Shown: positions 2,446-63,672 of the stretch, one piece after another | How the letters are laid out: each line of letters opens with the position of its first letter | Position numbering within the stretch: the stretch's first letter is position 1 | IMG/VR virus record: IMGVR_UViG_3300031943_000020 | Length of the DNA stretch: 64,000 nucleotides | Source of the DNA: an uncultured virus (IMG/VR IMGVR_UViG_3300031943_000020) | Lineage: Duplodnaviria > Heunggongvirae > Uroviricota > Caudoviricetes | Reading direction: 5' to 3' (one strand) | The notes under the pieces: generated by a model | The model's database searches: none | Told to the model about the DNA's origin: nothing | What the model saw: only the letters and a program-made list of their open reading frames with translations | Made by a program: the position numbers and the translations under genes

Positions 2446-3696
2446 ATGGATACAGTAAAGCCGCTCACCGTTCCTGTCCCAGCCATCCAGGGTTATTTTG
2501 GCTCGAAGCTCCTCAGTTTTCAAACACAGCTACGCCCGCAAGATGTGATCGCGGTGCTTGGGCATGACCCGCGCTCTGATCATTGGAAATTGCTTGCTCA
2601 ACCGCTCCGTGAACGCTATGAACACGTCCAACGGGCGACTGACAACCAACGTCGCACCGCCCTCATGGAGTATATTAGTCAACATATTGGAGAAGACGGG
2701 CCTGTTATTGGGGCGTTCCCGGCCATTTGTATTGGGATGACGCAGCCTGCGTTGTTTGAACCCCGCCCGGATGATGCGAGCCTTGGGTATCTCAAATTAG
2801 AAACGGGCACATCGGCATCACGTACCCGCATTCTGTTGGATGGTCTGGCACGAGTGACGGCTGCCTTGACTCTTATTGAGCAGGCAGAGGATGTCGATAT
2901 TGCCGGCGGCTTGCAGGAGATTTTTGCTTTCCCGGTAACCTTCTATGCTCCTATCCGTGGCACGCTGACACTCGATGAACTCGGGCAACTGTTTTACGAT
3001 TTCAACTATCTGCAAAAACGCATCTCCACCCAGCATGCCATTGCCCTCGACCAGAGTGATCTCTATATTCGCCTCACGAATCAGCTTGGTGAGCAGGGCG
3101 TCCTGAAGCGGTATGGCGGGATGGATATGCGTGCGGCGAGTCTCGGGAAAAACAGCAAGGCCGTTGTTGTACAGAAGGTGTTACTGCGTTTTGTGCGCGG
3201 GGCCTGTGAGGGTTGGGCTTTCCAGCAAAGCAATCGCGCCTCGACAGACAGCCCGCATTTAACCCCATCGACGTATGCCACTATTGCGCAGCAACTCGAT
3301 ACGTACCTAGCTGATGTCAGCGCCAACATGGGGGAAACGCGCTTTACGGACCGGGATTCCCTGCACCTCACCGCTCCAGGGTGGCAGGTACTTGGCTTGG
3401 TGTTTCATGATCTCATTCTCCACCTGCATGCCGCCCCTTCGACCATGGGAACGGTTATTCAACGCCTCGCGGCTATTGACTGGAGCCGCTTTAACCCCGA
3501 GTGGATTCCCTATTTAGGCGAAGCGGAAACGCATAAGGTGACGGGATTGCCGGTACAAGATGCTCAAGGTCATGCCCGCGTAAAGATCACGCGCCTTGGA
3601 GCCGAGGGTATTAAGCGGTTACGCGATTATGTCTATGATAGAACGGGACTGACAGTCCTTACGGCAGATCTGGAAAAAGAAGGGAGAGCGGCCTAA
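2446..3696 (+). CDS. DndB/DGQHR-domain family protein (ParB-like fold)
   Basis: HVQRATD..RR, FPAICIG, ILLDGLAR (DGQHR-equivalent) and QLFYDFN motifs; preceded by an AT-rich intergenic tract. Confidence 0.7.
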   Translation: MDTVKPLTVPVPAIQGYFGSKLLSFQTQLRPQDVIAVLGHDPRSDHWKLLAQPLRERYEHVQRATDNQRRTALMEYISQHIGEDGPVIGAFPAICIGMTQPALFEPRPDDASLGYLKLETGTSASRTRILLDGLARVTAALTLIEQAEDVDIAGGLQEIFAFPVTFYAPIRGTLTLDELGQLFYDFNYLQKRISTQHAIALDQSDLYIRLTNQLGEQGVLKRYGGMDMRAASLGKNSKAVVVQKVLLRFVRGACEGWAFQQSNRASTDSPHLTPSTYATIAQQLDTYLADVSANMGETRFTDRDSLHLTAPGWQVLGLVFHDLILHLHAAPSTMGTVIQRLAAIDWSRFNPEWIPYLGEAETHKVTGLPVQDAQGHARVKITRLGAEGIKRLRDYVYDRTGLTVLTADLEKEGRAA

Positions 3697-3772: not shown

Positions 3773-4294
3773 ATGGCTAGCGTGGGTCGTCCCAGACTAT
3801 ATCCAGACATTCAGACAACGTGGCGAGAAAATCAACGGACCCATCGAAAGGCTAAACAGGCCCAGATAAAAGTCTACCATCGGAGCAAGCGGGCAGACTG
3901 GGGTACGCCACAAGAGTTTTTCGATCCCCTACACGTTGAGTTTGGCTTTACCCTCGACGTGGCTGCAAGCTCTAGCAATACCAAATGCCTGCGCTACTTT
4001 ACGCAAGCGGACGACGGCTTGCGCCAACCCTGGGCGCCCAACGTGTGCTGGATGAATCCCCCGTATGGACGCGGTATTGAGCAGTGGATAGAGAAAGCCT
4101 ACGACAGCGCCCAAGTAGGGGCGACGGTTGTGTGTCTCGTGAAAGCCACACCCGATACGCAGTGGTGGCATACTTATGCTCCATACGCTGAGATTCGTTT
4201 TGTCGTGGGTCGTCTCACCTTTGTTGGAGCAACGAATCGTGCTCCATTTCCCAGCGCTCTCCTCATTTTTCGCCCCCCGAGAGAGGAGTCGTAA
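3773..4294 (+). CDS. Phage DNA N6-adenine methyltransferase (Dam, PF05869-like)
   Basis: WGTPQEFF..FTLDVAA..WMNPPYGR..VVCLVKATPDTQWW..EIRFVVGRLTF. Confidence 0.9.
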   Translation: MASVGRPRLYPDIQTTWRENQRTHRKAKQAQIKVYHRSKRADWGTPQEFFDPLHVEFGFTLDVAASSSNTKCLRYFTQADDGLRQPWAPNVCWMNPPYGRGIEQWIEKAYDSAQVGATVVCLVKATPDTQWWHTYAPYAEIRFVVGRLTFVGATNRAPFPSALLIFRPPREES

Positions 4295-4499: not shown

Positions 4500-4500
4500 T

Positions 4501-4845
4501 ATGGCAACCTTTGTCAAGTTTGATGAAGAGCGTTTTTTGAATATGGACCTCGTGACCCAAGTCTCGTGGGATAGAATCGAGAGGCATTTTCTCGTCTGGG
4601 TCGTTGGACGCCTTGAGCCGTTCATCCTCAATAATGACGAGCGTATTGTCATGAATCTCTATCTAGAGGCCTATGCAAGAGACAACTCTTTTTATTGGCC
4701 TGTGCCAGACAAACAAAGTGATGATGACCATGCGGAACATGACAGTTGTCGGAGAGCCTCTAATTCTTCTGATACGGAGTGCCCCTACTGCCGTGGCGTA
4801 GCATGGAAAGCGAATCACAATACCAACCCTGCGCTAACTGAGTGA
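4501..4845 (+). CDS. Hypothetical protein
   Basis: MATFVKFDEERFLNMDLV...; coupled to upstream stop. Confidence 0.55.
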   Translation: MATFVKFDEERFLNMDLVTQVSWDRIERHFLVWVVGRLEPFILNNDERIVMNLYLEAYARDNSFYWPVPDKQSDDDHAEHDSCRRASNSSDTECPYCRGVAWKANHNTNPALTE

Positions 4846-4852
4846 CACTATC

Positions 4853-5035
4853 ATGTCCCATAACCACCGCGCCGCACCCCTGGACCCGGACACTGAGGCA
4901 AAGATGCGGGCGATCTTTGCCTCCCTCATTCACGATCTGCTCGACGCCATTGATGAGTTTGGCTATGAAGCCGTGTTCTTTGGGGTCGGCTGTGAGGTGT
5001 TCCCGGATGCCGCAGACCCCTGCTGTCAGCCATAG
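4853..5035 (+). CDS. Hypothetical protein
   Basis: 60 aa ORF in operon order. Confidence 0.4.
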   Translation: MSHNHRAAPLDPDTEAKMRAIFASLIHDLLDAIDEFGYEAVFFGVGCEVFPDAADPCCQP

Positions 5036-5165
5036 GGAGGGTTAATGTGAGCCACTCATCTAGCACACGTCGGAGAGCTTCTGCAAAGGTAATCCCTGCC
5101 TGCGCCGCTAGGGCCTCTAGGACCTGTGCTTGTCGATCGGTAAAATATACACTCATCTTTTGCAT
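4926..5165 (-). CDS. Ribbon-helix-helix (CopG-like) DNA-binding protein
   Basis: MQKMSVYFTDRQAQVLEALAAQAGITFAEALRRVLDEWL: beta-strand then two helices; last gene of the array operon; 3' end uncertain. Confidence 0.7.
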   Translation of the reverse strand: MQKMSVYFTDRQAQVLEALAAQAGITFAEALRRVLDEWLTLTLPMADSRGLRHPGTPHSRPQRTRLHSQTHQWRRADRE

Positions 5166-5187
5166 ACAATCTCTCTCTGAGATGTCG

Positions 5188-6440
5188 TTGCCTTGACGGC
5201 CCCGCCCTGACGCGCCCAACCTCACCTCACCAGGCCCATCCCAACCAAGCCGCGACGGCCCTGCCCTACCAGGCCTAGCCTAGCCTTGACAGCCTCGCCC
5301 AACCTCACCCTGACACACCACACCTTGCCTTACCACGACGGCCCCGCCCCACCGAGCCTTGCGATACCCTACCGAGCCCCACCGAGCCCAGCCCCGACGG
5401 CCCTGCCCAGCCGGGCCGTACCTCGCCCAGCCCCGCCCTGCCGAGCCCCGACTGCCTCGACGGCCACACCAGGCCATACCTTGACCTACCAGGCCTAGCC
5501 ACTCCACGCCTCGACAGCCCCGCCGGACCGAGCCTTGACGGCCACGCCAAGACATGCCCTACCGAGCCCTACCGCGCCGAGCCCTGACGGCCATGCCTAG
5601 CCGAAACTTGCCTTGCCATACCCCACCCAGACCCGCCGTGCCTTGTCTTGACTGCCATGCCCAACCACGCCACATCCCACCTTGACCCTCCATGCCTAGC
5701 CACTCCATGCCATGACGGCCCTGCCTTGACATGCCCTACCCTACAGTGCCTTACCTGGCCAAGGCTAGCCTGGCCAAACCACGCCTGGCTGCGACGGCCT
5801 CGCCCTGACTTGCCATGCTGCGCCTGACCTCGACTCACCGGGCCACGCCTCGACGGCCCTGCCATACCCCACCTCACCGCGCCTCACCACGCCTAGATAC
5901 GCCGTGCCATAACGGCCACGCCGCGCCCTACCCGACCTGGACCCGCCTTGCCGGACCTAGCCCCGACTGCCCCGCCGTGCCATGCCTTTCCACGCCCAGC
6001 CATGGCCGCCAGGCCCTACCCAGCCTTACCTGGCCCGGACTCGCCATGCCCGGACAGGCCACGCCTCAACGGCCACGCCCAACCTTACCAGGACATGCCA
6101 AGGCTCACCATACCGGGCCTTGCCTCGACGGCCCCGCCGAACCACGCCGCACCTTACCCTGACACGCCCTACCAAACCGCGCCATGACGGCCTTGCCGTG
6201 CCGCGGCTCACCAAGCCCCACCTTACCGTGCCCCGTTGGGCATCACCATGCCTCGACGGCCCCGCCATACCACGCCTTGCAGCGCCCAACTACGCCTAAC
6301 CACGCCAAACCTAACCATGCCGCGACTGCCAGGCCCTGCCATGACCCGCCATCCCGCGCCTCACCAAGCCTCGACAGCCCTGCCTTACCGCACCCTACCA
6401 CGCCCCGGCGCGCCTCACTACGCCATGACGGCCTTGTCTC
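5188..6440 (-). repeat. Array 2 of phased GGY-NN pentamers; putative guide-RNA array (about 23 units)
   Basis: + strand reads (RCC NN)n; 24 boundary motifs (mostly GACNGCC) from 5195 to 6427, every spacing equals 5n+4. Confidence 0.9.
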
Positions 6441-6442
6441 AC

Positions 6443-6970
6443 CTAGACGGGATGGAGTTGCGCGTCAATGGCAGCGAACAGCTCGCCGAGTTCGTAGAAG
6501 GCCTGATAGCGCCGCCGCCACGCCGCCAATTCCTCCAGTGCGCGTGCAATGGTGGCCTCACGCGCTTCAGCTTCGGACAAGATGCGGGCGACGGGAACAA
6601 AACACTGCCCTCCAGTGCCGTTCTCCGGGCGTTTGTCGATTGGATGAGCAACAAAGGCCTGGATCACCGTCTCGCGCTTTTCTTTGTCCACATAGTACAC
6701 CACGACGCGCTGACAGGCCCCGCGAAGCATCGCCGCTTGTTGGAGTTGGTAGGCCGTGGCCGCCTTGCCCCGATTCCACTCAATCAGTGGGTGCAGCGGG
6801 GAGCTTGGCGGACGCGCCACGTCACGAATCTGCTCGGGGGTAATGTCGCCATACTGGTCATGAATGGCTGCGAGTGCTTCCCCGGCGACTTGCGCCGAGA
6901 CGCCATGGTTGGGAAAGCCCTTGCGCCAGTGATAGGTGATCTTTGCCTCAGTGTCTTGCTGATAAACCAT
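6443..6970 (-). CDS. Accessory protein embedded between the two arrays (conserved-looking phage hypothetical)
   Basis: AQVAGEAL..ITPEQIRDVARPPSSPLHPLIEWN..AATAYQLQQA..ALEELAAWRRRY; GAGAGG RBS. Confidence 0.8.
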   Translation of the reverse strand: MVYQQDTEAKITYHWRKGFPNHGVSAQVAGEALAAIHDQYGDITPEQIRDVARPPSSPLHPLIEWNRGKAATAYQLQQAAMLRGACQRVVVYYVDKEKRETVIQAFVAHPIDKRPENGTGGQCFVPVARILSEAEAREATIARALEELAAWRRRYQAFYELGELFAAIDAQLHPV

Positions 6971-7004
6971 GTGTGCCTCTCTCAGTTATACCCTTATGCC
7001 TAGA

Positions 7005-7752
7005 AACCGTGACGGCCCCACCCGGCCTCGCACTACCAGGACAAGCCTTACCCCGACATGCCCAGCCGCGACGGCCACGCCTGACCTAACCACACCCCGC
7101 CGCGTCCCGCCTCGACGGCCACGCCGTGTCTTACCCAACCGGGCCGCACCATGCCGTACCGCACCATACCAACCCCACCATGCCCCGACTGCCTAGCCAT
7201 GACTACCCTGCCAAGACCTACCTAGCCTGACCCCGACTTGCCCGGCCTTACCATGACAGCCATGCCTTACCCTGCCCACCATGCCCGGACACACCGGGCC
7301 ACACCATGCCTAGCCGCGGCGGCCCAGCTCTACCCCGCCAAACCAAACCCCAGCCGGGCCTTGCCCCACCAGGACTTGCCTGGCCCCGACTGCCCTACCC
7401 GGCCCTGCCGTACCATGCCTCACCCCACCTAGACGCGCCGCACCTTACCACGACAGCCCCGCCTCGACGGGCCTCGCCTTGCCTCACCGCGCCCAACCGG
7501 GCCTCACCACGCCGGGCCGGGACCGCCACGCCGTACCACGCCCTACCCCACCCAGACAGACCCTGCCGTACCACGACGGCCACGCCAAGCCAGGCCAAGC
7601 CATACCTCGCCACACCGCGCCTCAACGGCCTTGCCAAACCACGCCATGCCCACCCACGCCGCACCTCACCACGCCACGCTATGACGGCCACGCCTGGCCT
7701 AACCACGCCAAACCACGCCGTACCGCACCATGCCATGCCTCGACTGCTCTGC
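7005..7752 (-). repeat. Array 1 of phased GGY-NN pentamers; putative guide-RNA array (about 13 units)
   Basis: Starts right after the RAMP-like gene stop; 14 boundary motifs from 7011 to 7742, spacings 5n+4 except three single-nt slips. Confidence 0.9.
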
Positions 7753-7754
7753 CT

Positions 7755-8438
7755 CTACTCGTTCCCTTCTTCATGTTCCGCCACATGAAACCGCCCGTAG
7801 CTTCCATCGCGTTCTGGGCGCCATTCCCCGATCCCTACGCCAAATCCTGCCAGATTAAACAGGTTGCAAATCTGTGAGGCGGAGAACACGGCGATGTTGT
7901 ACTGAATGCGTAGCCGCACGCGCCACGTCTTAAACTCGGCGCGGTAGCGAATATCGGCCGTGCCCATGGCGATCTTCACGGTATCTTCGCGCATGGACGG
8001 CGTGCCCTCGATCTGCACCATCTCGCCTATGACGTGAAAGGCGCCACGGGCTTCGGTCATTTTCAGGCCATCGGTAAAACGACAGGCGGAGACGCCGGCA
8101 TTCTTAAAGGCAATACATGGGAAGCCATACCCGCCGTCGGGGTGAGGATAGAGACTATCCTCATAATCTTTCTGGGGGTCTTTGGCAGCTTTGCCTTCGG
8201 TCGCCCGCTTCATCTGCTTGTCGAGCATTTGCTGCTTGGCTTTCTCGCTCCAGCGGTGGCAGATGAGCGGGGAATCGCCAATCAGCACCAACTCCATCTC
8301 CTGAATGTTGATACGGGGGACCTCGATACGCCCCATGGTCATGGTAGGGCTGGCATCTTTGAGCGTGCCATTGGTTGCAATGCTGCCCTGGGTGTCATCG
8401 GCACGGTCTGTCATAACAGGTGCCTTGCGTGTCGGCAT
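7755..8438 (-). CDS. Cas7/RAMP-like RNA-binding protein (putative effector of the GGY-NN array system)
   Basis: N-terminal strand LIGDSPLICH, GFPCIAFKNA (cf. RAMP IPGSSLKG), C-terminal glycine-rich loop AGFGVGIGEWRPERDGSYGRF; AGGAG RBS. Confidence 0.8.
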   Translation of the reverse strand: MPTRKAPVMTDRADDTQGSIATNGTLKDASPTMTMGRIEVPRINIQEMELVLIGDSPLICHRWSEKAKQQMLDKQMKRATEGKAAKDPQKDYEDSLYPHPDGGYGFPCIAFKNAGVSACRFTDGLKMTEARGAFHVIGEMVQIEGTPSMREDTVKIAMGTADIRYRAEFKTWRVRLRIQYNIAVFSASQICNLFNLAGFGVGIGEWRPERDGSYGRFHVAEHEEGNE

Positions 8439-8497
8439 GAGAATGCTCCTTTACAATATCTTTACTCACATGTTCATCGTGTAGACACAGGAGAGGT

Positions 8498-8526
8498 ACT
8501 ATAGGCAGGTTGTCTCGGCGTGTCAA
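8498..8526 (-). promoter_or_regulatory. Near-consensus sigma70-type promoter for the RAMP/array operon
   Basis: Minus strand TTGACA-17 nt-TATAGT, about 60 nt upstream of the ATG at 8438. Confidence 0.8.
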
Positions 8527-8561
8527 GTCCCTGTCTATGGGGGCGCGTTCCAAAATAGTTC

Positions 8562-8590
8562 TTGACATCTCCCAGGGATATCCAGACTAT
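8562..8590 (+). promoter_or_regulatory. Divergent promoter for the scaffold/capsid operon
   Basis: TTGACA-17 nt-GACTAT. Confidence 0.5.
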
Positions 8591-8641
8591 TAACAAAATT
8601 TATGCGCTAGTTCTAGACTAGACGCACCGTCCCTGACCTGC

Positions 8642-8682
8642 AAACGGCAGTGCTGAGTGATTCAGTACTGCCGTTTTTTTTG
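8642..8682 (+). terminator. Intrinsic terminator-like hairpin in the scaffold leader
   Basis: AAACGGCAGTGCTGA-gtgat-TCAGTACTGCCGTTT followed by a T run. Confidence 0.7.
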
Positions 8683-8735
8683 TGCCTGATGCTCTGTGGG
8701 ATGCAGAGCGTTCCTTGCCAGACACGGGAGGTGTT

Positions 8736-9515
8736 ATGGCACTCAAGCAAGTGTATGACAACCAGACCGAGATACCCCAGGGACTTCAGGAGCATTACGG
8801 CGAACGGGATGGACGCTGGGCGCTCGTGCTTGATCCCCCTGCGGAAGACGTGAGCGGACTGAAGGGCGCGCTGGACGCTGAACGTCGCCTCCGCCGCGAG
8901 ACCGAGAAGTCGCTGTCCGACATGAAGATCCGCTTTGAAGGTGTCGATCCAGACGAAGTTGTCAAGCTGCGTGACCGCGTCAAAGGGTTGGACGATGCCG
9001 AGATCTATGACAAGCAGGGCATTGAGGCTCTCGTCGCCCGGCGCACTGAGAGCATGAAGACGGAACACGAGCGCCAGGCGCGGGCCATGGAACGGGAAAT
9101 TACCCAACTCAAAGATACCGTGAGCGTGACCGATCGGAAGTGGCGCCAGGACCGTATTAAAACCGCGCTCCTCAATGCCGTCACGACTGCGAAAGTGGAT
9201 GAACCGGCCATTGTCGATGCCGTGCAGCGCGGGCTCGCGGTCTTTACCGACCTGGATGAGCAAGGCGAGGTCGTCGCCAAAAACGGTGATGATCTCAGGT
9301 ACGGGAAAGATGGCGTGCATCCCCTGACGCCGGCAGAGTGGATTGCTAGTCTGAAAGCCTCAGGCGAAGCCTCCCACCTCTGGCGCTCGTCCTCGGGTGG
9401 TGGCGCCCCGGCTCATCATGGCCCAGGCAATAACGCCATTGACTGGAACAGCATTACCAATCCCGCGGAGCGTCTCACGCGCTTTCGCGAATGGCAGGCC
9501 ACCCAAAACCGCTAG
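8736..9515 (+). CDS. Capsid scaffolding protein
   Basis: GGAGG RBS; LQEHY.ERDG..., DVSGLKGALDAER coiled coil, HLW.SSSGGGA tail; directly before capsid. Confidence 0.85.
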   Translation: MALKQVYDNQTEIPQGLQEHYGERDGRWALVLDPPAEDVSGLKGALDAERRLRRETEKSLSDMKIRFEGVDPDEVVKLRDRVKGLDDAEIYDKQGIEALVARRTESMKTEHERQARAMEREITQLKDTVSVTDRKWRQDRIKTALLNAVTTAKVDEPAIVDAVQRGLAVFTDLDEQGEVVAKNGDDLRYGKDGVHPLTPAEWIASLKASGEASHLWRSSSGGGAPAHHGPGNNAIDWNSITNPAERLTRFREWQATQNR

Positions 9516-43646: not shown

Positions 43647-46600
43647 ATGCTCCATGCCCTGTCTGTCCTTGTTCTGCTCCTGTGTTGGACGTCCCAGGTC
43701 TGGGCGACCACGCGGTATGCCTCGCCCGGTGCCTCAGGTGGATTGCCCTGTCCACGGAACGCGCCCTGTAGCGTGCGAACCTGTATTGAAGCGACCTTTG
43801 CCGGTGATCAGTGCTTCTTGCGCGCTGGCACCTACGACGTGAGCATTCGTACTTCGGATATGGCCATTCGTAGCGGGACGAGTGATAGCAATAGGGTGGT
43901 TATTGCTGGTGATCCTGCGGACCCGCCGCAGAGCGCCATTATTCGGCCAACCAGCGGCGGAGTCGTCATTGGGGTGGAATGGAATCAGGCAACATCCTAT
44001 GTGACCTTTGAGAATATGGTGCTTGATGCTGGAGGGATTAGCGGCGACGGCATTAATTCGCAGGGACCCGACGTGCATCATATTCGCTGGAAAGATCTGG
44101 AAGTGAAGAATGCCATGGGCATGGGGCCTTCATGTGGTCTTGGTGGTCCTGAGTCCTGCCCCGGGAAGAATGGTGTTGATGGCCATAGCGAGGGCAATGG
44201 GGGCCATCACCAGGAATTTCTCAATCTCAAAGTGCACCATAATGGTTTTAACCGTTTAAGCCATAATATGTATATGGTCTGTAATGACTGTATTGTTGAC
44301 GGTGGGGAATATTACGATAGTGAAGGCTATGGGCTGCAAATCTATAACAGTGCTTGTGGTGGAACAGGATGTAATCATCGTTTTATCGTGCGCAATGTCA
44401 AAGTTCATGATAATCGTGGGGATGGTGGCCTTACGGTCAACTATGGCAACGATATCAAGGTCTACAACAATCTTATTTATAATAATAATAGTGGTGGCAT
44501 CCGCGCGATCTGTTACGGCAATACCAACAACACCCAGATTTATAATAATACGTTCTATGGCAATAATGGTGCTGGCCTTGAAATTTGTGGTGGCATAACC
44601 AATACGCAGGTGAAAAATAACATCTTCATGAACAACGGGGCGATTGGTGGTGAAAATGCCGAGAGTGGTGGCACGACCCCTGCCAATAATTTGTGCTTCA
44701 ATACCGGGGGCACTACCACCGGATGTACCCATTCTGGCGACCCACGGTTTATGAATGCTGGCTTAGCGGATTTTCGTCTCCAAAGTACCAGTGCTGCCAA
44801 GAACCAGGGGGCGAATCTCGCGAGCGCGGGCGTCACCGATGATTTTGTGCATTTCCCGCGTCCCAGTGGCGGTGTCTACGATATTGGCGCCTATGAGTTT
44901 GATGAAGGTGGAGGTCCTCCCCCGCCAACTGGCCCCACGGTGCGCTATATGGCTCCTGCCGGGAGTGGTGGACTCGATAGTTACACCTGTGCGGAGGCTG
45001 CAAACAATACCGCGAAACCCCATGCCACTTTTGCCAAAGCGATTACCTGTATGGCCGCTGGTGATACACTCCAGCTTCGAGGTGGTACTTACTCACAACG
45101 TCTCCAACCGAGTAGCTATACCTCGCATCCCGATGGCACGGATTATGGCAGTGGTGCTGTCACACTTATGAGTTACCCTGGAGAAACCGCCATCATTACC
45201 CAAGTGGTGGATTTTAGTTGGGATTCCAACCTCCACTATTGGATCTTTAAAGACTTAACATTTGATGGAACAGCCTCAGCCCAAGCAAACGGGACATCTG
45301 AAGCATTTTGGTTTGGACAAGGTGTCCACCACATCCGTCTTGATAATATCACCGTACAGCGCCAACTGGGGGGATGGACAGGGATTGCGATTAATGGTCA
45401 GGCCAGTGACCGTATTGAAATCATCAATTCCCGCATTAGTGGCTTTGAATATGCTTTCTATATGCGGGGGACCAATTGGCTTGTCAATAACAATGAAATC
45501 TACAACAATGAGGGCTATGGTGTCCATGTCTATGATTCTGGGTCTACCATTGTTTCAGGCAACATTATTTCCAACAACTATATCCACGACAATGGTCAAT
45601 CCCTTGCCCATGGTACGCTCAGTGCAGGCATTACGATTGGTCATGGCACTGATAATCGTGCTATTAATAATATCGTCACAGGTCAGGGTATCCAAGGGAA
45701 TTGCCTTGCTGGTATTCAAATAGGCAATCAAGCTACCAACCACAAAATCTACAACAACACTATTGTCGATAATGGCACTTGTCCAGGCATTAGTATTAAT
45801 GCTGGTGATCCTGTTGGCACCGATATTCAAAATAACATCATCTTTAACAACACCGGCGGACAGATCCAAGACAATGGGACTCCGTTCACCTCGGGGAAGA
45901 ACCTGTGTGGTGCAGCAGGCACTGGTTGCCAACTGGTCACAACGACCTCGCCAGTCGTCGGCACCGGCTCTGGTGCGAATAAATACAAAATGGTGGCTGG
46001 GAGCCCGGCGATTGATGCCGGCAACACGCTGGCCGCGGTGCCCACCGATATTGCTGGAGTAAGTCGCCCACAACCGTCGGATGGCTCGTATGACATCGGG
46101 GCGTATGAAATGCCTGCGGGTGGGGGGCGTGTCAGTCCAGGGACCTTCTGGGTATCCTCCTCTGGCGTCGATCCGCCTACGAGAACGTGTGGTGCTGCCC
46201 TCAACAACATCAATGCGCCGCTCCTCACCTTCAACGCCGGAAGGGCCTGTCTCGCGGTGGCCGGGGACAAGCTCTTCCTCCGTGGAGGGAGTTATGACGC
46301 CACGATGTATACGGGCACACAGCCCATTGCGAGTGGCACGAGTTGGGCTGAGGCAACGACCATTGCCGCCTACAACACGGAACCTGTGACCCTCATCCTC
46401 CCGACGACCTCCGATATCGTGATGTACTTTAACGCGAGTGACCGCTTTATTATCCTCGATCGCCTCACGTTCGACTGTCACAATCAAGCCAACAGTAATG
46501 GTCTGGCGATGGCGACCGGCACGCACCATATTCGGTTTCAAAATGGGGAAATTAAGAACTGTCACTTTGAGCCCGTGTATATTGAAGGGAGCGATAACAA

Positions 46601-47315
46601 CGAAATACTCAATAGCGCTATTCATGGCAGTGCCCTGAAAGACTGTATTGGCCTGAATGTCGGGAGTGATAACACGATCCTGCGGGGCAATACGATCCAT
46701 ACCTGCCCAAGCGCCGGTATCCTGGCTGGCAGTCCCAACACGGGCACCGTGATCCGGGATAACGTCATTCATGACGCCGGCACCGATACCCCGAGTGCCA
46801 AGGCCGGGATTATGACGGCGGGCGCGACCAGCCCGGTCATCATTAACAACCTGGTGTACAACAATTACCGCGGCATCCACCTTCAGGCGGGCACCACGAA
46901 TGACGCGAAGGTGTTCAACAACACGGTGCATGGCAACGCGACGCAGGGGGTCCAGATTGATGCGACGGCGGGGGCGGTCGTGACGAATAATATTGTCGCG
47001 GCCAATACGATCGCCCAGATTGTGAATAACGGCTCAGGACCGACGCCCACGACGAACCTGACCACGGCGCCCCCCTTTGATCCGGCATTCCCGAACAAAT
47101 TTCACCTCACCAGCGCCGCGACGACGGCGATTGACGTAGGCACGCCGCTCACGGCCGATGTGCCCAAGGACTATGAGGGTATTGACCGTCCCCAGGGGGC
47201 GGGGTATGACATTGGCGCCAGTGAGTTTGTCGGCACCATCGTGCCAGAAGAGCCTCCGCCCGGTATCGCGATCCGCATGCCATACTGGCGGGGACAAGGC
47301 TTTTTCTGGCGCTAG
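43647..47315 (+). CDS. Signal-peptide protein with three right-handed parallel beta-helix modules
   Basis: Each module begins AGD.L.LRGG.Y and ends D..G..RP.G..YDIGA.E; Asn-rich IYNNT repeats. Confidence 0.85.
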   Translation: MLHALSVLVLLLCWTSQVWATTRYASPGASGGLPCPRNAPCSVRTCIEATFAGDQCFLRAGTYDVSIRTSDMAIRSGTSDSNRVVIAGDPADPPQSAIIRPTSGGVVIGVEWNQATSYVTFENMVLDAGGISGDGINSQGPDVHHIRWKDLEVKNAMGMGPSCGLGGPESCPGKNGVDGHSEGNGGHHQEFLNLKVHHNGFNRLSHNMYMVCNDCIVDGGEYYDSEGYGLQIYNSACGGTGCNHRFIVRNVKVHDNRGDGGLTVNYGNDIKVYNNLIYNNNSGGIRAICYGNTNNTQIYNNTFYGNNGAGLEICGGITNTQVKNNIFMNNGAIGGENAESGGTTPANNLCFNTGGTTTGCTHSGDPRFMNAGLADFRLQSTSAAKNQGANLASAGVTDDFVHFPRPSGGVYDIGAYEFDEGGGPPPPTGPTVRYMAPAGSGGLDSYTCAEAANNTAKPHATFAKAITCMAAGDTLQLRGGTYSQRLQPSSYTSHPDGTDYGSGAVTLMSYPGETAIITQVVDFSWDSNLHYWIFKDLTFDGTASAQANGTSEAFWFGQGVHHIRLDNITVQRQLGGWTGIAINGQASDRIEIINSRISGFEYAFYMRGTNWLVNNNEIYNNEGYGVHVYDSGSTIVSGNIISNNYIHDNGQSLAHGTLSAGITIGHGTDNRAINNIVTGQGIQGNCLAGIQIGNQATNHKIYNNTIVDNGTCPGISINAGDPVGTDIQNNIIFNNTGGQIQDNGTPFTSGKNLCGAAGTGCQLVTTTSPVVGTGSGANKYKMVAGSPAIDAGNTLAAVPTDIAGVSRPQPSDGSYDIGAYEMPAGGGRVSPGTFWVSSSGVDPPTRTCGAALNNINAPLLTFNAGRACLAVAGDKLFLRGGSYDATMYTGTQPIASGTSWAEATTIAAYNTEPVTLILPTTSDIVMYFNASDRFIILDRLTFDCHNQANSNGLAMATGTHHIRFQNGEIKNCHFEPVYIEGSDNNEILNSAIHGSALKDCIGLNVGSDNTILRGNTIHTCPSAGILAGSPNTGTVIRDNVIHDAGTDTPSAKAGIMTAGATSPVIINNLVYNNYRGIHLQAGTTNDAKVFNNTVHGNATQGVQIDATAGAVVTNNIVAANTIAQIVNNGSGPTPTTNLTTAPPFDPAFPNKFHLTSAATTAIDVGTPLTADVPKDYEGIDRPQGAGYDIGASEFVGTIVPEEPPPGIAIRMPYWRGQGFFWR

Positions 47316-55226: not shown

Positions 55227-55634
55227 TCATGGTCTCGGGGGGCGACGACCTCGGCGACGAGCTGGCGCCACACGCGCTGCGGGGGCATACGGTTCCTCCT
55301 CTGGGAACAACGTGTCGTTTGCTGGTCTGGGCGTGAGCGGCGTCGGCGTAGGCTCACGTAAAGCCTCGTGGAGCGGGCCAGGCCACTCCTGCGGCACATA
55401 CGCTTGGCGCAGCCGGGTCGCGGCATCGGGCGCCTCTGTCTCTAACCACGGCAGAAGACGTGCCATCAGGTCGTCGCGCAGTGGGGAGGCAAAGCACAGG
55501 GTTTGGCCAGAGCCATCACGGCGATGTAAATGGTCCCACGCTTCGGACCACAGATGTTCGGGCATGGCTTCATCGAGCGCGTCAAGAAGCCAGGCGAGGG
55601 TCTCTCTAAATTGTCGTTCCTTACTCTGCTCCAT
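55227..55634 (-). CDS. Hypothetical protein
   Basis: Operon order, AAGGG RBS. Confidence 0.5.
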   Translation of the reverse strand: MEQSKERQFRETLAWLLDALDEAMPEHLWSEAWDHLHRRDGSGQTLCFASPLRDDLMARLLPWLETEAPDAATRLRQAYVPQEWPGPLHEALREPTPTPLTPRPANDTLFPEEEPYAPAARVAPARRRGRRPPRP

Positions 55635-56124
55635 GATGATATCCCTTCTTTTTGAGGCGCTCTAGGGGCGACGAAAAACCCTCTAAGAGTTGAAAGAGTC
55701 CCATGGCGAGACGGTAGACTTCGGCCTCTAACTCTGCGCGCGTAATACAGCGGGAGGAGAGATGGGGACGTCCGTCCTTGTCTGTACTCCACTGCCGAGG
55801 CGCAATGCTCACACCATGTTGGGGATCGCCATAAAGCTCCCATGGATTCTTGAAATCCATATCGGATGAGGTCAGGACTCTTTCGAGAATGGTGGGGGTG
55901 ACAGCAAACCATTCCCCCGCCTGCCGATACTCCTTCAGCATAGTATGTAAGAGCTTTTCAAGTCGTTCTGGAAAATACGTCGGGATAGCATTGTAGAGAC
56001 GCAACGGATACGGGCATCCCGTTTGGAGGGCCTTTATCCGCTCATCGACCCCTGTGGTGGTCTTGCCAATTTTAAATAACCCGTGATCCTCTGCCTGCAC
56101 AATATAGACATGGCCGTAACTCAC
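55621..56124 (-). CDS. GIY-YIG / T5orf172-domain protein
   Basis: GHVYIV..FKIGKT..ERIKALQTGCPYPL..LEKLLH..YRQAGEWF. Confidence 0.85.
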   Translation of the reverse strand: MSYGHVYIVQAEDHGLFKIGKTTTGVDERIKALQTGCPYPLRLYNAIPTYFPERLEKLLHTMLKEYRQAGEWFAVTPTILERVLTSSDMDFKNPWELYGDPQHGVSIAPRQWSTDKDGRPHLSSRCITRAELEAEVYRLAMGLFQLLEGFSSPLERLKKKGYHHGAE

Positions 56125-56423: not shown

Positions 56424-57755
56424 TTAAAAGGGAACACGACTACCCTCCTCGTCCACATCCTCGGGATCGTCGATGCCACCCATCTCGATACTGCCCCGTA
56501 CGGTCGCGCTATACTTGCCATACCGCGTCCGGTGGATCAGGTCCTCTTTCACCATCATGGAGCAGAGTTTGCGAAGATAGCCGTATTGTTCGGTCTTGAA
56601 ATCGCCAGCCCGCAAAATCTCCTGCACGCCCATCTCGCGCCTCTCTTCAGTCAAAATCTTAATCACCTTGCGCTGGTCGCGGCTCACCTCATACTCCTCC
56701 CCTTCCCCGATGTATTCCCAATGGCCATCGAGGAAGCGCAGGGCAATGGTTTGGTCTTCTGCGTCTTTGTCCCGGATATGGAGAAAGGCATAGTCATCTT
56801 TCGGCTTGCGTTCGAGCACCCATAACACATCCTGGGCACCTTGATACGCCACGCTCCCGTGGAGGTTATCAAAGACATCGTCGGCTTCTTGTTTGCGTAA
56901 ATGAGTCAGCATGGCGAGGCAAAACGGGTGTTGTTGCCGGAGCGCTTGCAGCGGCGCAAACATCTCGTAGACATCATGATAGTTTTTTTCTCCCTTCCCT
57001 CCATTCGTCGGTTCGAGTTTTGCCAGGACATCAATCACGACCAGGCCATAGTGATACCGGGTAATTTCCTGGGCGAGATCCTCAATCCCCCCTTCGAGTA
57101 AGGGGCGGAAACTATAGCGTAAGTGAAAGTTGTTGACGGTCGTCAGGTTCGGCTGGATCAGCCGCGTGCGGCCCTGGAGGCGAGCTCGCCCATCTTCGAG
57201 GGCGAGAAAGAGGACGGGGAGGCTTTGCTTGCACCCAAAATGCCGAAAGGCTGAGCGTCCTACTGCAAGGGAGAGAGCCAGGTCAAACATCAGCCACGAC
57301 TTCCCCCGCTTACTCTTGCCGCCAAAGAGCAGCATGCCTTCGTGCATCAGACCATCAAAGAGGTGAACGGGCGGCGGAATATCTGCCGCCAGGAGATCCG
57401 TGAGGGTTTCCGGGGGTGGCAATAGCTCCTGCGCTGGTGTGGGGCCATGCCCATTCCGCTGCTGTGCCAAGAACGCATCCACTGCGTGTTGCAAGTCGAA
57501 GGGATTACCACCAATCTCCTTAAAGCGCTGTTTGATCGCCCCCCACTGCGGCTCCTGGCGGAAGTGGGAGAGCGTCAAGAGATTCTCCCCCGTCGTGGGG
57601 TCATTGTCGTACCACGCGCCGGGAGGGTATTGTGCCAAAATGACGGCGAGTCGCTCGGGCTCGCTCATGCCTACCCACATTTCCCACGCTTCAAGACTCG
57701 CCTTGACCTCACGGGATGGAAGAGCGTCTTTAGTAATGCGTTCGGTCATAGGCAT
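56424..57755 (-). CDS. AAA_25 / RepA-like replicative helicase
   Basis: Walker A GKSKRGKS, VLFLALED, Walker B LVVIDVL, THLRK, GS motif. Confidence 0.85.
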   Translation of the reverse strand: MPMTERITKDALPSREVKASLEAWEMWVGMSEPERLAVILAQYPPGAWYDNDPTTGENLLTLSHFRQEPQWGAIKQRFKEIGGNPFDLQHAVDAFLAQQRNGHGPTPAQELLPPPETLTDLLAADIPPPVHLFDGLMHEGMLLFGGKSKRGKSWLMFDLALSLAVGRSAFRHFGCKQSLPVLFLALEDGRARLQGRTRLIQPNLTTVNNFHLRYSFRPLLEGGIEDLAQEITRYHYGLVVIDVLAKLEPTNGGKGEKNYHDVYEMFAPLQALRQQHPFCLAMLTHLRKQEADDVFDNLHGSVAYQGAQDVLWVLERKPKDDYAFLHIRDKDAEDQTIALRFLDGHWEYIGEGEEYEVSRDQRKVIKILTEERREMGVQEILRAGDFKTEQYGYLRKLCSMMVKEDLIHRTRYGKYSATVRGSIEMGGIDDPEDVDEEGSRVPF

Positions 57756-59790: not shown

Positions 59791-60780
59791 TTACGGACGA
59801 CGAATCAGGCGTAAATTCTTTGGTGTCGGCAGGGGCGGTGGCGCTGGTGGCGTGGCATCCTCGGGACGTGCCGCGAGCGCTGGGGGACCATCGCCCTGGT
59901 GGCCGTCACAGATCTCCATGTCGCCCCCGGTGTTCCCGGCAAACGTATTGCCCTCGGCGCGGATATTGGTGGCTCCCCCCTGGCAGGGTGCCTGTATGGC
60001 TCCGCCACTGTTGTTCTCGATGCGGTTCCCGACGACGGCCAGGCCGCTGCCATGGTTGAGCGTCACCGCCCCATCGCCCCGGTTGTCATGAATCCGGTTG
60101 TTGAGCAGTTGCGTGCCGGACGAGCAGCCCGGGCTGGCCGAGTCGTAGACCTGGATCCCGTACCCGCTATTGTTCCAGACCTCGGAGTCCCGGATGACGA
60201 GATTGTGCCCACAGACATAGAAGCCATGGTCGAGGCGGTTGAGGCCATTGTCATGCACGTTCATGCCGCTAAACTCGATATTGGCGGCCCCAAAAACCTG
60301 CACGCCAGAGGCGCCCGGGCAGACCTCTGGTCCGCCGAGGCCACACGCCGGGCCGTGCTCCTTGGCATTCTTCACCTCGGAGTTGCTCATGCGGATGTCG
60401 TGCGTGCCACTCCCGCCGAAAAACACGGTACTGCCTTCGACGACCAGGCGATCAAACGCGATGAACTGATACGTCCCGCCATGGTAGCCATTGAGGTCGA
60501 CGCCCGGCACCACGGCCGTTTCGCCAGGGGCCGACGCAATCGTCACCGGGTTACTCCAGGAGGTGCCAGAGGGGATGGGCAGGCTGCCGCTGGAGAGACG
60601 CTGACTGTACGTGCCGCCGTGCAGGAACAGCGTATCGCCGGCCTGCATGTGGCCCAGCACGGTGGTGAAATCCTCGCCAGGGGAGACGTAGTAGGTCGCG
60701 GCGTGGGTCATCACGGGCGCGAGCAACAGACTGCCGAGCGTGAGTATTCCGCATGCCTGACGAAAGGTGCGTCGTTTCAT
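59791..60780 (-). CDS. Signal-peptide beta-helix protein (paralog of module 1 of 43647-47315)
   Basis: THA|ATYYVSP; GPACGLGGPEVCPG; ends PLPTPKNLRLIRRP. Confidence 0.85.
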   Translation of the reverse strand: MKRRTFRQACGILTLGSLLLAPVMTHAATYYVSPGEDFTTVLGHMQAGDTLFLHGGTYSQRLSSGSLPIPSGTSWSNPVTIASAPGETAVVPGVDLNGYHGGTYQFIAFDRLVVEGSTVFFGGSGTHDIRMSNSEVKNAKEHGPACGLGGPEVCPGASGVQVFGAANIEFSGMNVHDNGLNRLDHGFYVCGHNLVIRDSEVWNNSGYGIQVYDSASPGCSSGTQLLNNRIHDNRGDGAVTLNHGSGLAVVGNRIENNSGGAIQAPCQGGATNIRAEGNTFAGNTGGDMEICDGHQGDGPPALAARPEDATPPAPPPLPTPKNLRLIRRP

Positions 60781-60796: not shown

Positions 60797-61810
60797 TTAG
60801 GGGGTCCGCAGCAGGCGGAGGTTGCTAGGGGTTGGCAGGGCCTTCGCCACTGGGCTCCCGGTCAGGACGGGATCGCCTGGTGCCGGGCCGTCGGTGCGGT
60901 GGCAGGTATTGCCCTCGACCGTCGAGCCACTGGAGCCTGGTCCTTCGTCGATACAGGGCGCCTGGGGGCTGTAGATCGTGTTGCCCGTGACCTGGTTGAC
61001 GCCCCGGCCGAGCTGAATCCCGGCGAGGGCATGGCCCTGTCCCCAGACGGTATTGCCCGTGGCATGATTGTCACTCCCGGAGGACAGCAAAATGCCCGCA
61101 CTATTCGTGCCATGGGCGAGCGTCAGCCCGTTGTCATGGACCCGGTTCTGACTGACGATGTTCCCCGAGACCCGCGAGGAACCCGAGTCGTAGACATGCA
61201 CGCCATACCCTTCCTGATGGTCAATCTCGTTGTTGTGAATCAGCCAGTTGGTCCCGCGAATATACAAACCATACTCCCAGCCGGTGATGCGGGAGTTGAT
61301 GACCTCGCAGGCATCACATTCCCCTGAGATCGCGATCCCTGGCCACCCGCGAGGCTCGCGCTGAACCGTCATCGTATCGAGGCGGACATGGTGCACCGAC
61401 GCGCCCGCATAGAAGGCTTCGGACGTCCTCTGAGCTTGCGCCCGTGCGGTGCCATCCAGCGTAAAATCTTTGAGAATCCAATGGTGGAGGTTGGAGGCCC
61501 AGGTGAAGTCCACCACGCCCGTCACCGTCGCCGTTTCCCCGGGATACCCCGTAATGGTGATCGCGTTGCTGTAACTGGTGCCCGAGGCACCCCCCCAGTC
61601 GGTTGGCCGTATGGGCTGGTTATAGGTCCCGCTACGCAGATAGAGCGTATCGCCGGCCTGGAGCTTGCGACCCGCGGTGGCAATCTCGGCGCAGGGTTCT
61701 GCCTGGGTACAGGCGCTGCCGCTCCCGCCTGGGGCTACGTAGAACGTCGCGCTCCAGGCGTCAGCAGCGAGGGTGAGCGTGAGGAGGGTGAGCAGCGTGC
61801 GAGGGTGCAT
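60797..61810 (-). CDS. Signal-peptide beta-helix protein (paralog of module 2 of 43647-47315)
   Basis: AWS|ATFYVAP; VVDFTWASNLHHWILKDFTLDGT; ends ALPTPSNLRLLRTP. Confidence 0.85.
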   Translation of the reverse strand: MHPRTLLTLLTLTLAADAWSATFYVAPGGSGSACTQAEPCAEIATAGRKLQAGDTLYLRSGTYNQPIRPTDWGGASGTSYSNAITITGYPGETATVTGVVDFTWASNLHHWILKDFTLDGTARAQAQRTSEAFYAGASVHHVRLDTMTVQREPRGWPGIAISGECDACEVINSRITGWEYGLYIRGTNWLIHNNEIDHQEGYGVHVYDSGSSRVSGNIVSQNRVHDNGLTLAHGTNSAGILLSSGSDNHATGNTVWGQGHALAGIQLGRGVNQVTGNTIYSPQAPCIDEGPGSSGSTVEGNTCHRTDGPAPGDPVLTGSPVAKALPTPSNLRLLRTP

Positions 61811-61880
61811 CGTGTGTCCTTCTGGCATACGGGGTGTGATGAGACATACTCTGCTAGAGGATACATATATATATTATGTC

Positions 61881-62592: not shown

Positions 62593-63672
62593 ATGGCCTT
62601 AGCCCATTTTTGGATGCAAAGTATCAGTCGTGCGAAGGCGAGTTTACCGGCGTCGGTCGCGGTGCATTATCTCAAACGTGAAGCGGAGTTTGCCCCGGAA
62701 GCCTACCTCTCACGCACAAGTGAAAGCACGAAGGATCGTCATGATTTAGTCGCATGGGATGTGCAGCATCTCCCAACCTGGGCCGAGGACAGTCCTGGGA
62801 AGTTTTTTAGTGCCGCCGAACGCTATGAGGGGGTCAATCGGTACCACGCGATTATGCTACAATTCTCCCTGCCGAAAGAAATGACCCACGATCAGCATCT
62901 TTCCCTGACCCAGGACTTTCTTGAGGCCACGATGCCAGACAAGAGTCTGCTCTGGGTCAAACATGAGCCGCTCGACAATTTCACGCATGAGCCCCAGCCG
63001 CATTGTCACATCTTACTTTCTGCACGCACGGTCGATGGGATTGCGCGTGATCCTGCGCAGACGTTTATGCGTTGGAATGCTGCCCATCCAGAGGAGGGGG
63101 GCTGTCAGAAAGATGCGTTTTGGAGTCAGCGGCAAGCCGTGGAACAACTCCGGCATGCGTTTACCGATCTCACGAACTTCCATGCTGAGAAGCTCGGGCT
63201 CGCTATGCGGATTGATAGTCGCAGCTTGCACCGTCGCGATATTGACCGGAAGCCGATGGTCAAAGAAGAGGACCGCCCAAGCCGTGAGGCATTGGCCGCC
63301 GAACAAGTCAAAGCTGCATACGCCTGGGAGCAGCGCAAAGTCTATAAGGGGCTCGGTGAGATCCAGGCGATCCCGCGTGAAGAGTTTGTCCTCCTTGTGC
63401 GGCAGTGGACGCGGGACTACGACCGGGGCCAGCAGCTCCCCCGCGTAAGTCTGACCGAGGTCCAGGCGTGGACGACGCAGGAGCAGGCACGGCTCGCGCA
63501 GCGCCAGCAGGGGGTAGACTACCAGCTCGCCCAGGTAGAGCGGGGGCTGGCGGGGGAGTTGCGAGCGCATGAACTGCTCGCTCTGACGCAGCGCCCGAGG
63601 CAGGAGCAGCCCGTGACGCCAGGGTTACGCGCACGGATCTTTGAGGATGACCACCCAGGGTATCGGTACTAG
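62593..63672 (+). CDS. mobA: MobA/MobL-family relaxase
   Basis: AVHYLKRE, LPTWA..FFSAAERYE, FSLPKEM, KH..QPHCHILLSAR (HUH), RIDSRSL. Confidence 0.85.
   Translation: MALAHFWMQSISRAKASLPASVAVHYLKREAEFAPEAYLSRTSESTKDRHDLVAWDVQHLPTWAEDSPGKFFSAAERYEGVNRYHAIMLQFSLPKEMTHDQHLSLTQDFLEATMPDKSLLWVKHEPLDNFTHEPQPHCHILLSARTVDGIARDPAQTFMRWNAAHPEEGGCQKDAFWSQRQAVEQLRHAFTDLTNFHAEKLGLAMRIDSRSLHRRDIDRKPMVKEEDRPSREALAAEQVKAAYAWEQRKVYKGLGEIQAIPREEFVLLVRQWTRDYDRGQQLPRVSLTEVQAWTTQEQARLAQRQQGVDYQLAQVERGLAGELRAHELLALTQRPRQEQPVTPGLRARIFEDDHPGYRY

Follow-up and report, generated by a model that had tools for sequence, protein, structure and literature searches.

VIPR (Viral Interference Programmable Repeat) systems are CRISPR-related, RNA-guided DNA silencers that pair the minimal RAMP protein Vipr with an accessory gene, vap (10.64898/2026.04.26.720920). 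The accessible parts of the preprints cited here, on which all our statements about published VIPR systems are based, describe seven types with several array layouts and guide RNAs (vrRNAs) of 9 to 16 YNNGG repeats, in which GGY is conserved and the two N bases are hypervariable (10.64898/2026.04.26.720920). Base pairing of NN with double-stranded DNA leaves out every third target base, and it represses the transcription of rival phages and satellites (10.64898/2026.04.26.720920). Vipr forms a right-handed filament with one protomer per pentamer, and the NN bases read the DNA (10.64898/2026.04.26.720927). In the layout termed staggered, the processed vrRNAs overlap by 1 nucleotide (nt), the end of one being the start of the next, as stated in the legend to figure S18 (10.64898/2026.04.26.720920). 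Here, we describe a locus on the minus strand of IMG/VR record IMGVR_UViG_3300031943_000020, a 64,000-nt stretch of DNA from an uncultured member of the Caudoviricetes, which we refer to in its full length as the window. We are highly confident that this locus belongs to an uncultured soil phage and encodes a VIPR system whose guide arrays are staggered and lack tails.

The locus shares with the published staggered VIPR systems a lone minimal RAMP gene accompanied by a candidate accessory gene in a phage, GGY/NN arrays placed in flanking intergenic DNA on the same strand as the gene, and a 1-nt overlap between units (10.64898/2026.04.26.720920). We found no departure from that description, and the accessible text makes no mention of a GGCN/GUC boundary, in which the first triplet is GUC in place of GGY, or of a set of 36 units and 1.97 kb. 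The type II system of Escherichia phage SUSP1, which comprises Vipr, Vap1, and four vrRNAs, is similar to the window locus in its homologous Vipr with conserved GGY-contact residues, in the order of vipr, accessory gene (a candidate in the window), and array, and in its guides of about 12 pentamers. However, every vrRNA of SUSP1 comes with a leader and a pseudoknot tail of about 40 nt, whereas the window units abut and have neither. The SUSP1 accessory protein is also unrelated to the 175-amino-acid protein of the window, and the fixed triplet of the SUSP1 vrRNAs is mostly GGU, in contrast to GGC in the window. We therefore assign the locus to staggered-array VIPR rather than to a SUSP1-like type II system.

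Two further systems invite comparison. The backbone of class 1 CRISPR-Cas effectors (Cas7, Csm3, or Cmr4 on a crRNA) likewise has a RAMP fold, and its subunits assemble on a guide RNA at a constant spacing in nucleotides, but this spacing is 6 nt with one base flipped, while that of VIPR is 5 nt with three bases sequestered. VIPR also differs from class 1 CRISPR in its noncontiguous guide and in being a phage-borne element. A CRISPR-Cas array consists of identical direct repeats and unique spacers and is accompanied by cas1/cas2 or other cas genes, whereas the repeating unit of the window is 5 nt long, not 60 to 79 nt. No cas family besides the lone RAMP was found with Pfam or PHROGs among 48 window open reading frames (ORFs), and no dedicated CRISPR-repeat search of the 64 kb was made. 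In Bacillus, the TRAP protein recognizes 11 G/UAG triplets spaced 2 to 3 nt apart, with one subunit of the oligomer per triplet; its subunits are small beta-sandwiches closed into a ring, and the spacers between the triplets are devoid of information. The window arrays resemble TRAP sites in combining fixed triplets with two variable bases, about 11 per unit, but here a RAMP filament takes the place of the ring, and it is the spacers that carry the information. A sponge for a TRAP-like ring protein was dropped as a candidate once the RAMP fold and the Vipr homology described below had been found, as were a CsrA-type sponge, a super rut site on the plus strand, and a class-switch-like R-loop tract.

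Tracts of (GGY-NN)n occupy positions 5188-6440 and 7000-7752 on the minus strand. This pentamer grammar was proposed in an earlier sequence-only reading of the window and is confirmed by autocorrelation and per-phase entropy. At lag 5, the minus-strand autocorrelation reaches 0.499 for array 1 and 0.495 for array 2, compared with 0.21 to 0.32 at lags 1 to 4. The five phases of 292 internal pentamers have entropies of 0.30, 0.61, 1.09, 1.88, and 1.97 bits, so that both N positions are near random, and position 3 is C in 64% of the cases, making the fixed triplet mostly GGC. A rival reading takes the tracts for protein-coding genes of glycine/arginine-rich repeats, and ORFs of 81 to 113 amino acids are indeed open on the minus strand inside the arrays; the equivalent tract in Mycobacterium phage Donkeykong (NC_051648.1) is annotated as “gene 48.” However, a 5-nt period with −1 slips preserves no reading frame, and it is G1, G2, and Y3, rather than codons, that are conserved. 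The GGTAA, GGTGA, and GGTAG units place stops in every frame, and therefore no ORF spans an array. We consider the probability that the tracts are coding practically negligible.

The tracts are divided into units by boundaries at which the pentamer register moves. Array 1 (7013..7744, minus strand) holds 13 units between 14 boundaries, and array 2 (5197..6429, minus strand) holds 23 units between 24 boundaries; both are staggered and tail-less, with a 4-nt step of the form GGCN/GTC, where the slash marks the step. All 38 boundaries that the sequence-only reading had placed were recovered at the same coordinates. Read on the minus strand, their heptamers are GGCCGTC (19), GGCAGTC (6), GGCTGTC (5), and GGCCGTT (3), with five further variants seen once each. 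Within the 2,565 nt at 5188-7752, there are 31 copies of GGCNGTC, compared with 61 in the 122,872 positions (both strands) of the remaining window. The spacings between boundaries are 4 modulo 5 in 33 of 36 cases. The 5n+4 rule inferred earlier thus applies without exception to array 2 (23/23) and to 10 of the 13 spacings in array 1, where three 1-nt slips had been claimed. The three exceptions are real and represent additional register shifts within a unit, although they are not all of one kind: two are 4-nt steps without GTC (GGTG/GGC and GGTT/GGT), and one is a 6-nt unit. When the last G of a unit is counted as the first base of the following GTC as well, 33 of the 36 units have a length that is an exact multiple of 5 nt; the mode is 60 nt, or 12 pentamers. 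The 1-nt overlap of published staggered vrRNAs is exactly the 5n+4 rule. Unsupervised tracking of the register across both arrays also returned 31 of 33 shifts as −1. Another 24 GTC pentamers lie inside units without any register shift, and the defining mark is therefore the 4-nt unit GGCN followed by GTC, not GTC alone.

The sequence-only reading had counted about 36 guides with 20 to 26 informative bases each. The count of 36 units stands, but only 29 are full-size (at least 40 nt and in register, 8 to 16 pentamers) and these carry 14 to 30 informative bases, with a mode of 22; the remaining seven are short or irregular, and units of 10, 15, 25, and 35 nt are present. The NN strings are all distinct among the 29 full-size units, as had been claimed, with a best pairwise identity of 0.75 and a median of 0.44. 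Guide-sized RNAs that carry their information in NN also agree with the published description of VIPR (10.64898/2026.04.26.720920). With 36 units and 1.97 kb, the window arrays are the largest among the loci that we compared.

Array 1 begins 11 nt past the stop codon of vipr (7755..8438, minus strand), which encodes a 227-amino-acid minimal Cas7-like RAMP (phrog_4652) with the G-loop AGFGVGIGEWRPERDGSYGRF. Pfam returned no family for this protein at E ≤ 0.01. An AlphaFold2 model (pLDDT of 77.5) produced 69 Foldseek matches in the PDB at E ≤ 1e-3, and those listed are Cas7-type or multi-Cas7 effector chains, including Csm3, Cmr4, type VII, and III-D. VIA-align of the model against 48,161 chains returned CRISPR RAMP proteins in all of the top 37 rows, with a best Z of 9.2 and a root-mean-square deviation of 3.8 over 145 residues. 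As modeled, the protein folds as a Cas7-type RAMP in two independent fold searches, which agrees with the RRM core, glycine-rich loop, and thumb of a minimal RAMP such as Vipr. Its relationship to Vipr emerges from the family alignment of 33 homologs, the profile of which matches PDB entry 36pp_D, “SUSP1 Vipr protein,” in an alignment spanning positions 13-184 of the 186 in the profile (E = 2.9e-11). The single sequence reaches SUSP1 Vipr at E = 0.0013 only, through its C-terminal 70 residues. An hhalign comparison with the SUSP1 gene product (NC_028808, 28477-29061, minus strand) gave a probability of 98.1% and E = 6.8e-14 over 170 columns.

The residues that hold the fixed triplet are conserved as well. 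In the SUSP1 filament, H17 and D177 hold G1, R138 and W178 hold G2, and R179 from the next protomer holds Y3 (10.64898/2026.04.26.720927). SUSP1 H17, R138, D177, W178, and R179 align with H61, R166, E205 (a change of D to E), W206, and R207 of the window protein, of which R166, E205, W206, and R207 are invariant in the family and H61 is nearly invariant. The G-loop GFGVGIGEWRP is invariant in the 33 homologs except for the near-invariant I (203) and P (208). By analogy with SUSP1, the 227-amino-acid protein would coat the pentamer RNA with one protomer per GGYNN.

We assessed how widely this arrangement occurs by searching for homologs of the 227-amino-acid protein. Among phage records, tblastn identified 34 with a homolog: 27 in Mycobacterium phages, 5 in Gordonia phages, 1 in the “cyanophage” Cy-LDV1, and 1 in a Pseudomonas phage. 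Cy-LDV1 has the order of the window: g34 is followed by a pentamer tract of about 200 nt, and g33 by a second tract of about 180 nt and then an excisionase. Donkeykong encodes gp49 (the Vipr homolog), gp50, and xis, and its array is located just upstream of gp49. Viral contigs contributed a further 42 loci, and a scan of one genome per prokaryotic species contributed 77 from Alphaproteobacteria, Acidobacteriota, Planctomycetota, Clostridia, Actinomycetota, and others. Arrays were detected with a simple period-5 GG search that compared the vipr strand with the opposite strand. They are present on the vipr strand in 41 of the 42 viral contigs as well as in Cy-LDV1 and Donkeykong, with none on the opposite strand in these 44 loci; in the genome loci, 70 of 77 have arrays, and the opposite strand carries only three short ones.

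This strict polarity relative to vipr bears on a role of the tracts at the level of DNA, such as a protein-binding array, an origin prone to G-quadruplexes or R-loops, or centromere-like repeats, with only an indirect link to the RAMP. The arrays contain 48 to 49% G on the minus strand, and a G-rich nontemplate strand favors R-loops and G-quadruplex structures; DndB-like and Dam methylase genes are also located nearby. Against such a role stand the polarity itself, the homology of the partner protein to an RNA-binding filament protein with conserved GGY contacts, and the hypervariability of NN, which is unlike an operator or iteron. We therefore regard a DNA-level role as extremely unlikely.

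The register behaves alike across the clade. An unsupervised Viterbi tracker over the five phases, in which a shift of +4 equals one of −1, found −1 in 221 of the 247 shifts from the window, the viral contigs, and the phage records and in 267 of the 297 from the genome loci, for a total of 488 of 544 in about 115 loci. The median in-register run is 54 nt in the former set and 49 nt in the latter. The step in most relatives is GGCA/GGC or GGCC/GGC, while that of the window is GGCN/GTC. In this Vipr clade, register shifts are as a rule −1 slips.

The minus-strand block runs in the order of a promoter-like site, vipr, array 1, the gene for the 175-amino-acid protein, array 2, and a small ribbon-helix-helix (RHH)-like gene. 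The promoter-like site (8498..8526, minus strand; TTGACA-17 nt-TATAGT) matches 11 of 12 hexamer positions of the sigma-70 consensus and lies about 60 nt upstream of the vipr start codon. Two such sites occur in the region, compared with 1.5 expected from shuffles, and the site is a consensus match only; transcription of the operon likely starts here. On the same strand, the region scanned was found to contain no terminator-like site. The operon closes with the RHH-like gene (4926..5165, minus strand; 79 amino acids, counted from the ATG at 5165), which has a weak NikA-like match (E = 0.0076, under the Pfam cut-off); in relatives, this place is taken by an excisionase (in Cy-LDV1 and Donkeykong, xis). 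The two arrays terminate in similar junctions of the form CT(G/C)AGAGAG(G/A), located 5 to 8 nt ahead of the next ATG, which belongs to the candidate vap after array 1 (6968-7000, minus strand) and to the RHH-like gene after array 2 (5163-5185, minus strand). This junction may be a shared ribosome-binding or processing signal.

Between 94% and 100% of the words sampled from 4900-8500 are present in 14 soil-metagenome DNA runs, 13 of which may be the source sample, and parts of the region occur in six soil metatranscriptome runs. Four metatranscriptome runs yielded 13 contigs with 100% identity on vipr, vap, array 1, and the gene-array junctions. The junction from vipr to array 1 is bridged by RNA-library contigs 7664-7814 and 7664-8008, and that from array 1 to vap is bridged by contig 6833-7047; contig 4999-5189 contains the last bases of array 2 and the RHH-like gene. 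The interior of array 2 (5263-6351) has no contig cover in the four RNA runs, but holes in contig cover prove nothing.

We propose that a single minus-strand transcript would extend from about 8500 to about 4900 and include vipr, array 1, the conserved candidate accessory gene, array 2, and the RHH-like gene, a step that we base on synteny, the promoter-like site, and the RNA-library contigs. As suggested by the SUSP1 system and the conserved residues, Vipr protomers would bind the array RNA, one per pentamer, with G1 and G2 clamped by H61, R166, E205, and W206 and Y3 held by R207 of the next protomer, so that both N bases would remain exposed. Every 8 to 16 pentamers, GGCN followed by GUC moves the register by −1, and this slip would end one Vipr filament or guide and start the next; about 29 guides of full size would result, together with 7 units that are short or irregular. 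Within a unit, the NN bases would then pair with double-stranded DNA by a 1-nt skip (NN-x-NN-x...) and block the transcription of a competing phage or other mobile element.

Several observations weigh against this interpretation. Small RNA sequencing has confirmed only the ribozyme-interspersed and single-vrRNA layouts (10.64898/2026.04.26.720920), and the staggered layout consequently rests on a figure legend in the accessible part of that preprint. From the same part of the published description, the type of the window system (I to VII) is not assignable. No natural target was found for any window guide, either in scans of 4.1 Mb or with exact seeds of 6 guides, and the clade-level enrichment for a 1-nt skip is small (8 guides at a match of at least 0.9 versus 4 shuffled guides). 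The 175-amino-acid protein shows no homology to SUSP1 vap1 (hhalign probability of 0.14%), and with its weak winged-helix rows (MecI, Z of 5.6), it is at most a candidate DNA-binding protein. The RNA contigs are strandless and carry no end information, DNA carry-over is possible, and no RNA ends were seen. In addition, an RNA-library insert in array 1 (7424-7565; 142 nt, with adapter remains at both ends) crosses two boundaries uncut, which indicates that at least some molecules are not cut there.

The same insert is what one would expect if the arrays were never cut, each tract of 0.7 to 1.2 kb serving as one long, kinked Vipr-RNA assembly or as a precursor only, with the 4-nt steps as by-products of unit addition, for example through slippage or recombination between units. 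Boundaries without a tail, ribozyme, or hairpin and the presence of the 10-, 15-, 25-, and 35-nt units are compatible with such arrays. However, by-products would not readily account for a slip that is nearly always exactly −1 in both sets of loci, or for its recurrence at median intervals that equal the published guide size of 9 to 16 repeats. The step also has a signature of its own in the window and in its relatives, and the figure S18 legend speaks of “individual processed vrRNAs” (10.64898/2026.04.26.720920). We consider uncut arrays very unlikely. The sequence-only reading had taken the boundaries for the ends of RNAs or filaments, which, by analogy, fits the VIPR literature. It had also suggested a small GCC/GGC stem at each boundary, and this part finds no support: 297 nt of array 1 fold at −141 kcal/mol, compared with −136 ± 4.7 kcal/mol for shuffles (z = −1.06), and the published mechanism needs single-stranded RNA. 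An array without a sign of selected structure fits a single-stranded, protein-bound RNA. A search of 4500-9000 against Rfam at E ≤ 1 returned no family.

How staggered guides without tails could be separated leads us to a tentative proposal, one that we hold to be possible but rather doubtful. The −1 slip could itself be the punctuation: a 4-nt unit cannot seat a protomer pair, so that the filament would stop at the step and the next would nucleate at GGCN/G. Dozens of guides would thereby be obtained from one operon transcript with no need for tails, a ribozyme, or a nuclease dedicated to the task, which would leave only the exposed joint for host RNases to trim. If true, punctuation by slip would be the simplest known encoding of a multi-guide array.

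We evaluated potential targets of the 29 full-size window guides with mismatch-tolerant 1-nt-skip scans against shuffled guides, using 4.1 Mb of compared DNA in total. In the window and 46 loci, the mean best match of the 29 guides is 0.750, compared with 0.753 for shuffled guides, and in 75 loci of capsid or helicase relatives, it is 0.767 compared with 0.765. In the 77 genome loci, a match of at least 0.8, which is the cut-off of the preprint (10.64898/2026.04.26.720920), was reached by 7 of the 29 window guides and by 10 of 87 shuffled guides. No self-target was found in the window, where the best match (0.81, with an 8-NN guide) is at a level reached by shuffled guides; the preprint systems are likewise without a self-target (10.64898/2026.04.26.720920). 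Exact 10-NN seeds of 5 of the 29 guides returned zero matches each in viral contigs, but exact seeds overlook targets with any mismatch in the seed, and these nulls are therefore not evidence of absence. The exact seed of one guide (unit 6326-6257) matched metagenome contigs at three loci, two of them near-identical. One match, at 1498-1539 of a metagenome contig with 38% GC (locus L124), covers 23 of 28 NN bases with 11 consecutive NN and lies in no clear ORF. It was rejected as a target and judged to be chance because the NN bases of the guide are AT-rich and, as a rough guess, about one random match is expected for 20 fixed bases in a collection as large as this one.

The scan was extended to 201 guides of the clade against the same 4.1 Mb with arrays masked. 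With a 1-nt skip, 3 guides match at 0.95 or above and 8 at 0.9 or above, compared with 0 and 2 for a 0-nt skip, 0 and 3 for a 2-nt skip, 0 and 2 for a 3-nt skip, and 0 and 4 for shuffled guides with a 1-nt skip. In the reverse direction, only one of 174 guides of relatives stands out when scanned against the window, with 17 of 18 bases matching vipr (about 7941-7967, minus strand). This guide, at 3020-3070 of a Lachnospiraceae metagenome-assembled genome (locus L109), is the first after vipr, and its NN bases (AT GG AC GC GA TT CG TA CG) correspond to codon positions 1 and 2 of MGTADLRYR, the invariant thumb motif of these Vipr proteins. It matches 18/18 in six loci and 17/18 in 19 further rows among the 25 listed, which include two copies of the window vipr. 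The vipr of L109 itself encodes MGSADLRYR with AGC, CTG, and AGA codons and matches at only 14/18. From these sequences, it looks like an anti-VIPR guide that spares its own gene through the choice of codon family. vrRNAs that target vipr with lower self-match scores are known for the SUSP1 family (10.64898/2026.10.15.759431). Three further guides (L104 4797, L104 5227, and L025 7394) have NN matches of 0.94 to 0.95 with a 1-nt skip in other loci, and the match of L104 5227 is located 25 nt upstream of the L109 vipr match. The pattern suggests VIPR-against-VIPR targeting among prophages of gut Clostridia. For the window guides, the NN composition fits codon positions 1 and 2 (log-likelihood of −3 bits) better than the other coding phases (−30 to −176 bits), all relative to uniform; this is weak evidence, as the fit to codon positions 1 and 2 is no better than uniform.

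The candidate vap (6443..6970, minus strand; phrog_15946), the 175-amino-acid gene, lies between array 1 and array 2. Homologs are present in 38 of 44 loci by tblastn and are directly downstream of vipr in the loci with coordinates compared. The AlphaFold2 model (pLDDT of 84) has an N-terminal domain of three helices and a strand, in this order, and a 40-residue C-terminal helix. Foldseek returned nothing for the model at E ≤ 1e-3. In VIA-align, the long C-terminal helix accounts for most rows, and for the N-terminal domain the top-ranking rows are MecI and a ribosomal protein (Z of 5.6 to 5.7). A search of the Atlas with the model returned viral hypothetical clusters and RepA-like rows at TM scores below 0.3. 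The N-terminal domain of the modeled protein is possibly winged-helix-like.

VIPR systems, the GGY/NN code, and the staggered layout were all published in 2026, and the locus adds nothing categorically new. What is new is the quantitative −1 slip rule for the Vipr clade, the lineage-specific boundary signature GGCN/GUC, the presence of the same module in Mycobacterium and Gordonia phages, and a large example with about 29 full-size guides under one putative promoter. The clade is very widespread, extending over soil phages, prophages of gut Clostridia, and cluster-F-type mycobacteriophages. In the literature searched, we found no paper that links vrRNA with mycobacteriophages, and on staggered vrRNAs we found the discovery preprint alone (10.64898/2026.04.26.720920). 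Through Donkeykong, the punctuation of tail-less arrays could be studied in a laboratory host, M. smegmatis mc2 155. Its staggered (GGCNN)n array (L002 2536-2914) coincides with the annotated coding sequence “gene 48 hypothetical protein” (2534-2920), and this annotation probably denotes a vrRNA array and not a gene.

The remainder of the window is phage DNA with genes for head morphogenesis, scaffold, major capsid, tape-measure, central tail fiber, and other tail fiber proteins; no tRNA was found in the window. A DndB-like (DGQHR-type) gene (2446-3696, plus strand) and a phage Dam N6-adenine methyltransferase gene (3773-4294, plus strand) adjoin the VIPR operon on the opposite strand. A MobA/MobL relaxase (62593-63672, plus strand), a RepA-like AAA_25 helicase (56424-57755, minus strand), and a T5orf172/MUG113 (GIY-YIG-like) gene (55621-56124, minus strand) share the contig with the full set of head and tail genes. 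Given this gene content, the element may be a phage-plasmid or a carrier of a mobilization module. Three right-handed beta-helix (NosD-like) proteins are encoded at 43647-47315 (plus strand), 59791-60780 (minus strand), and 60797-61828 (minus strand), two of them far from the tail module, and they are probably depolymerase-type tail spikes.

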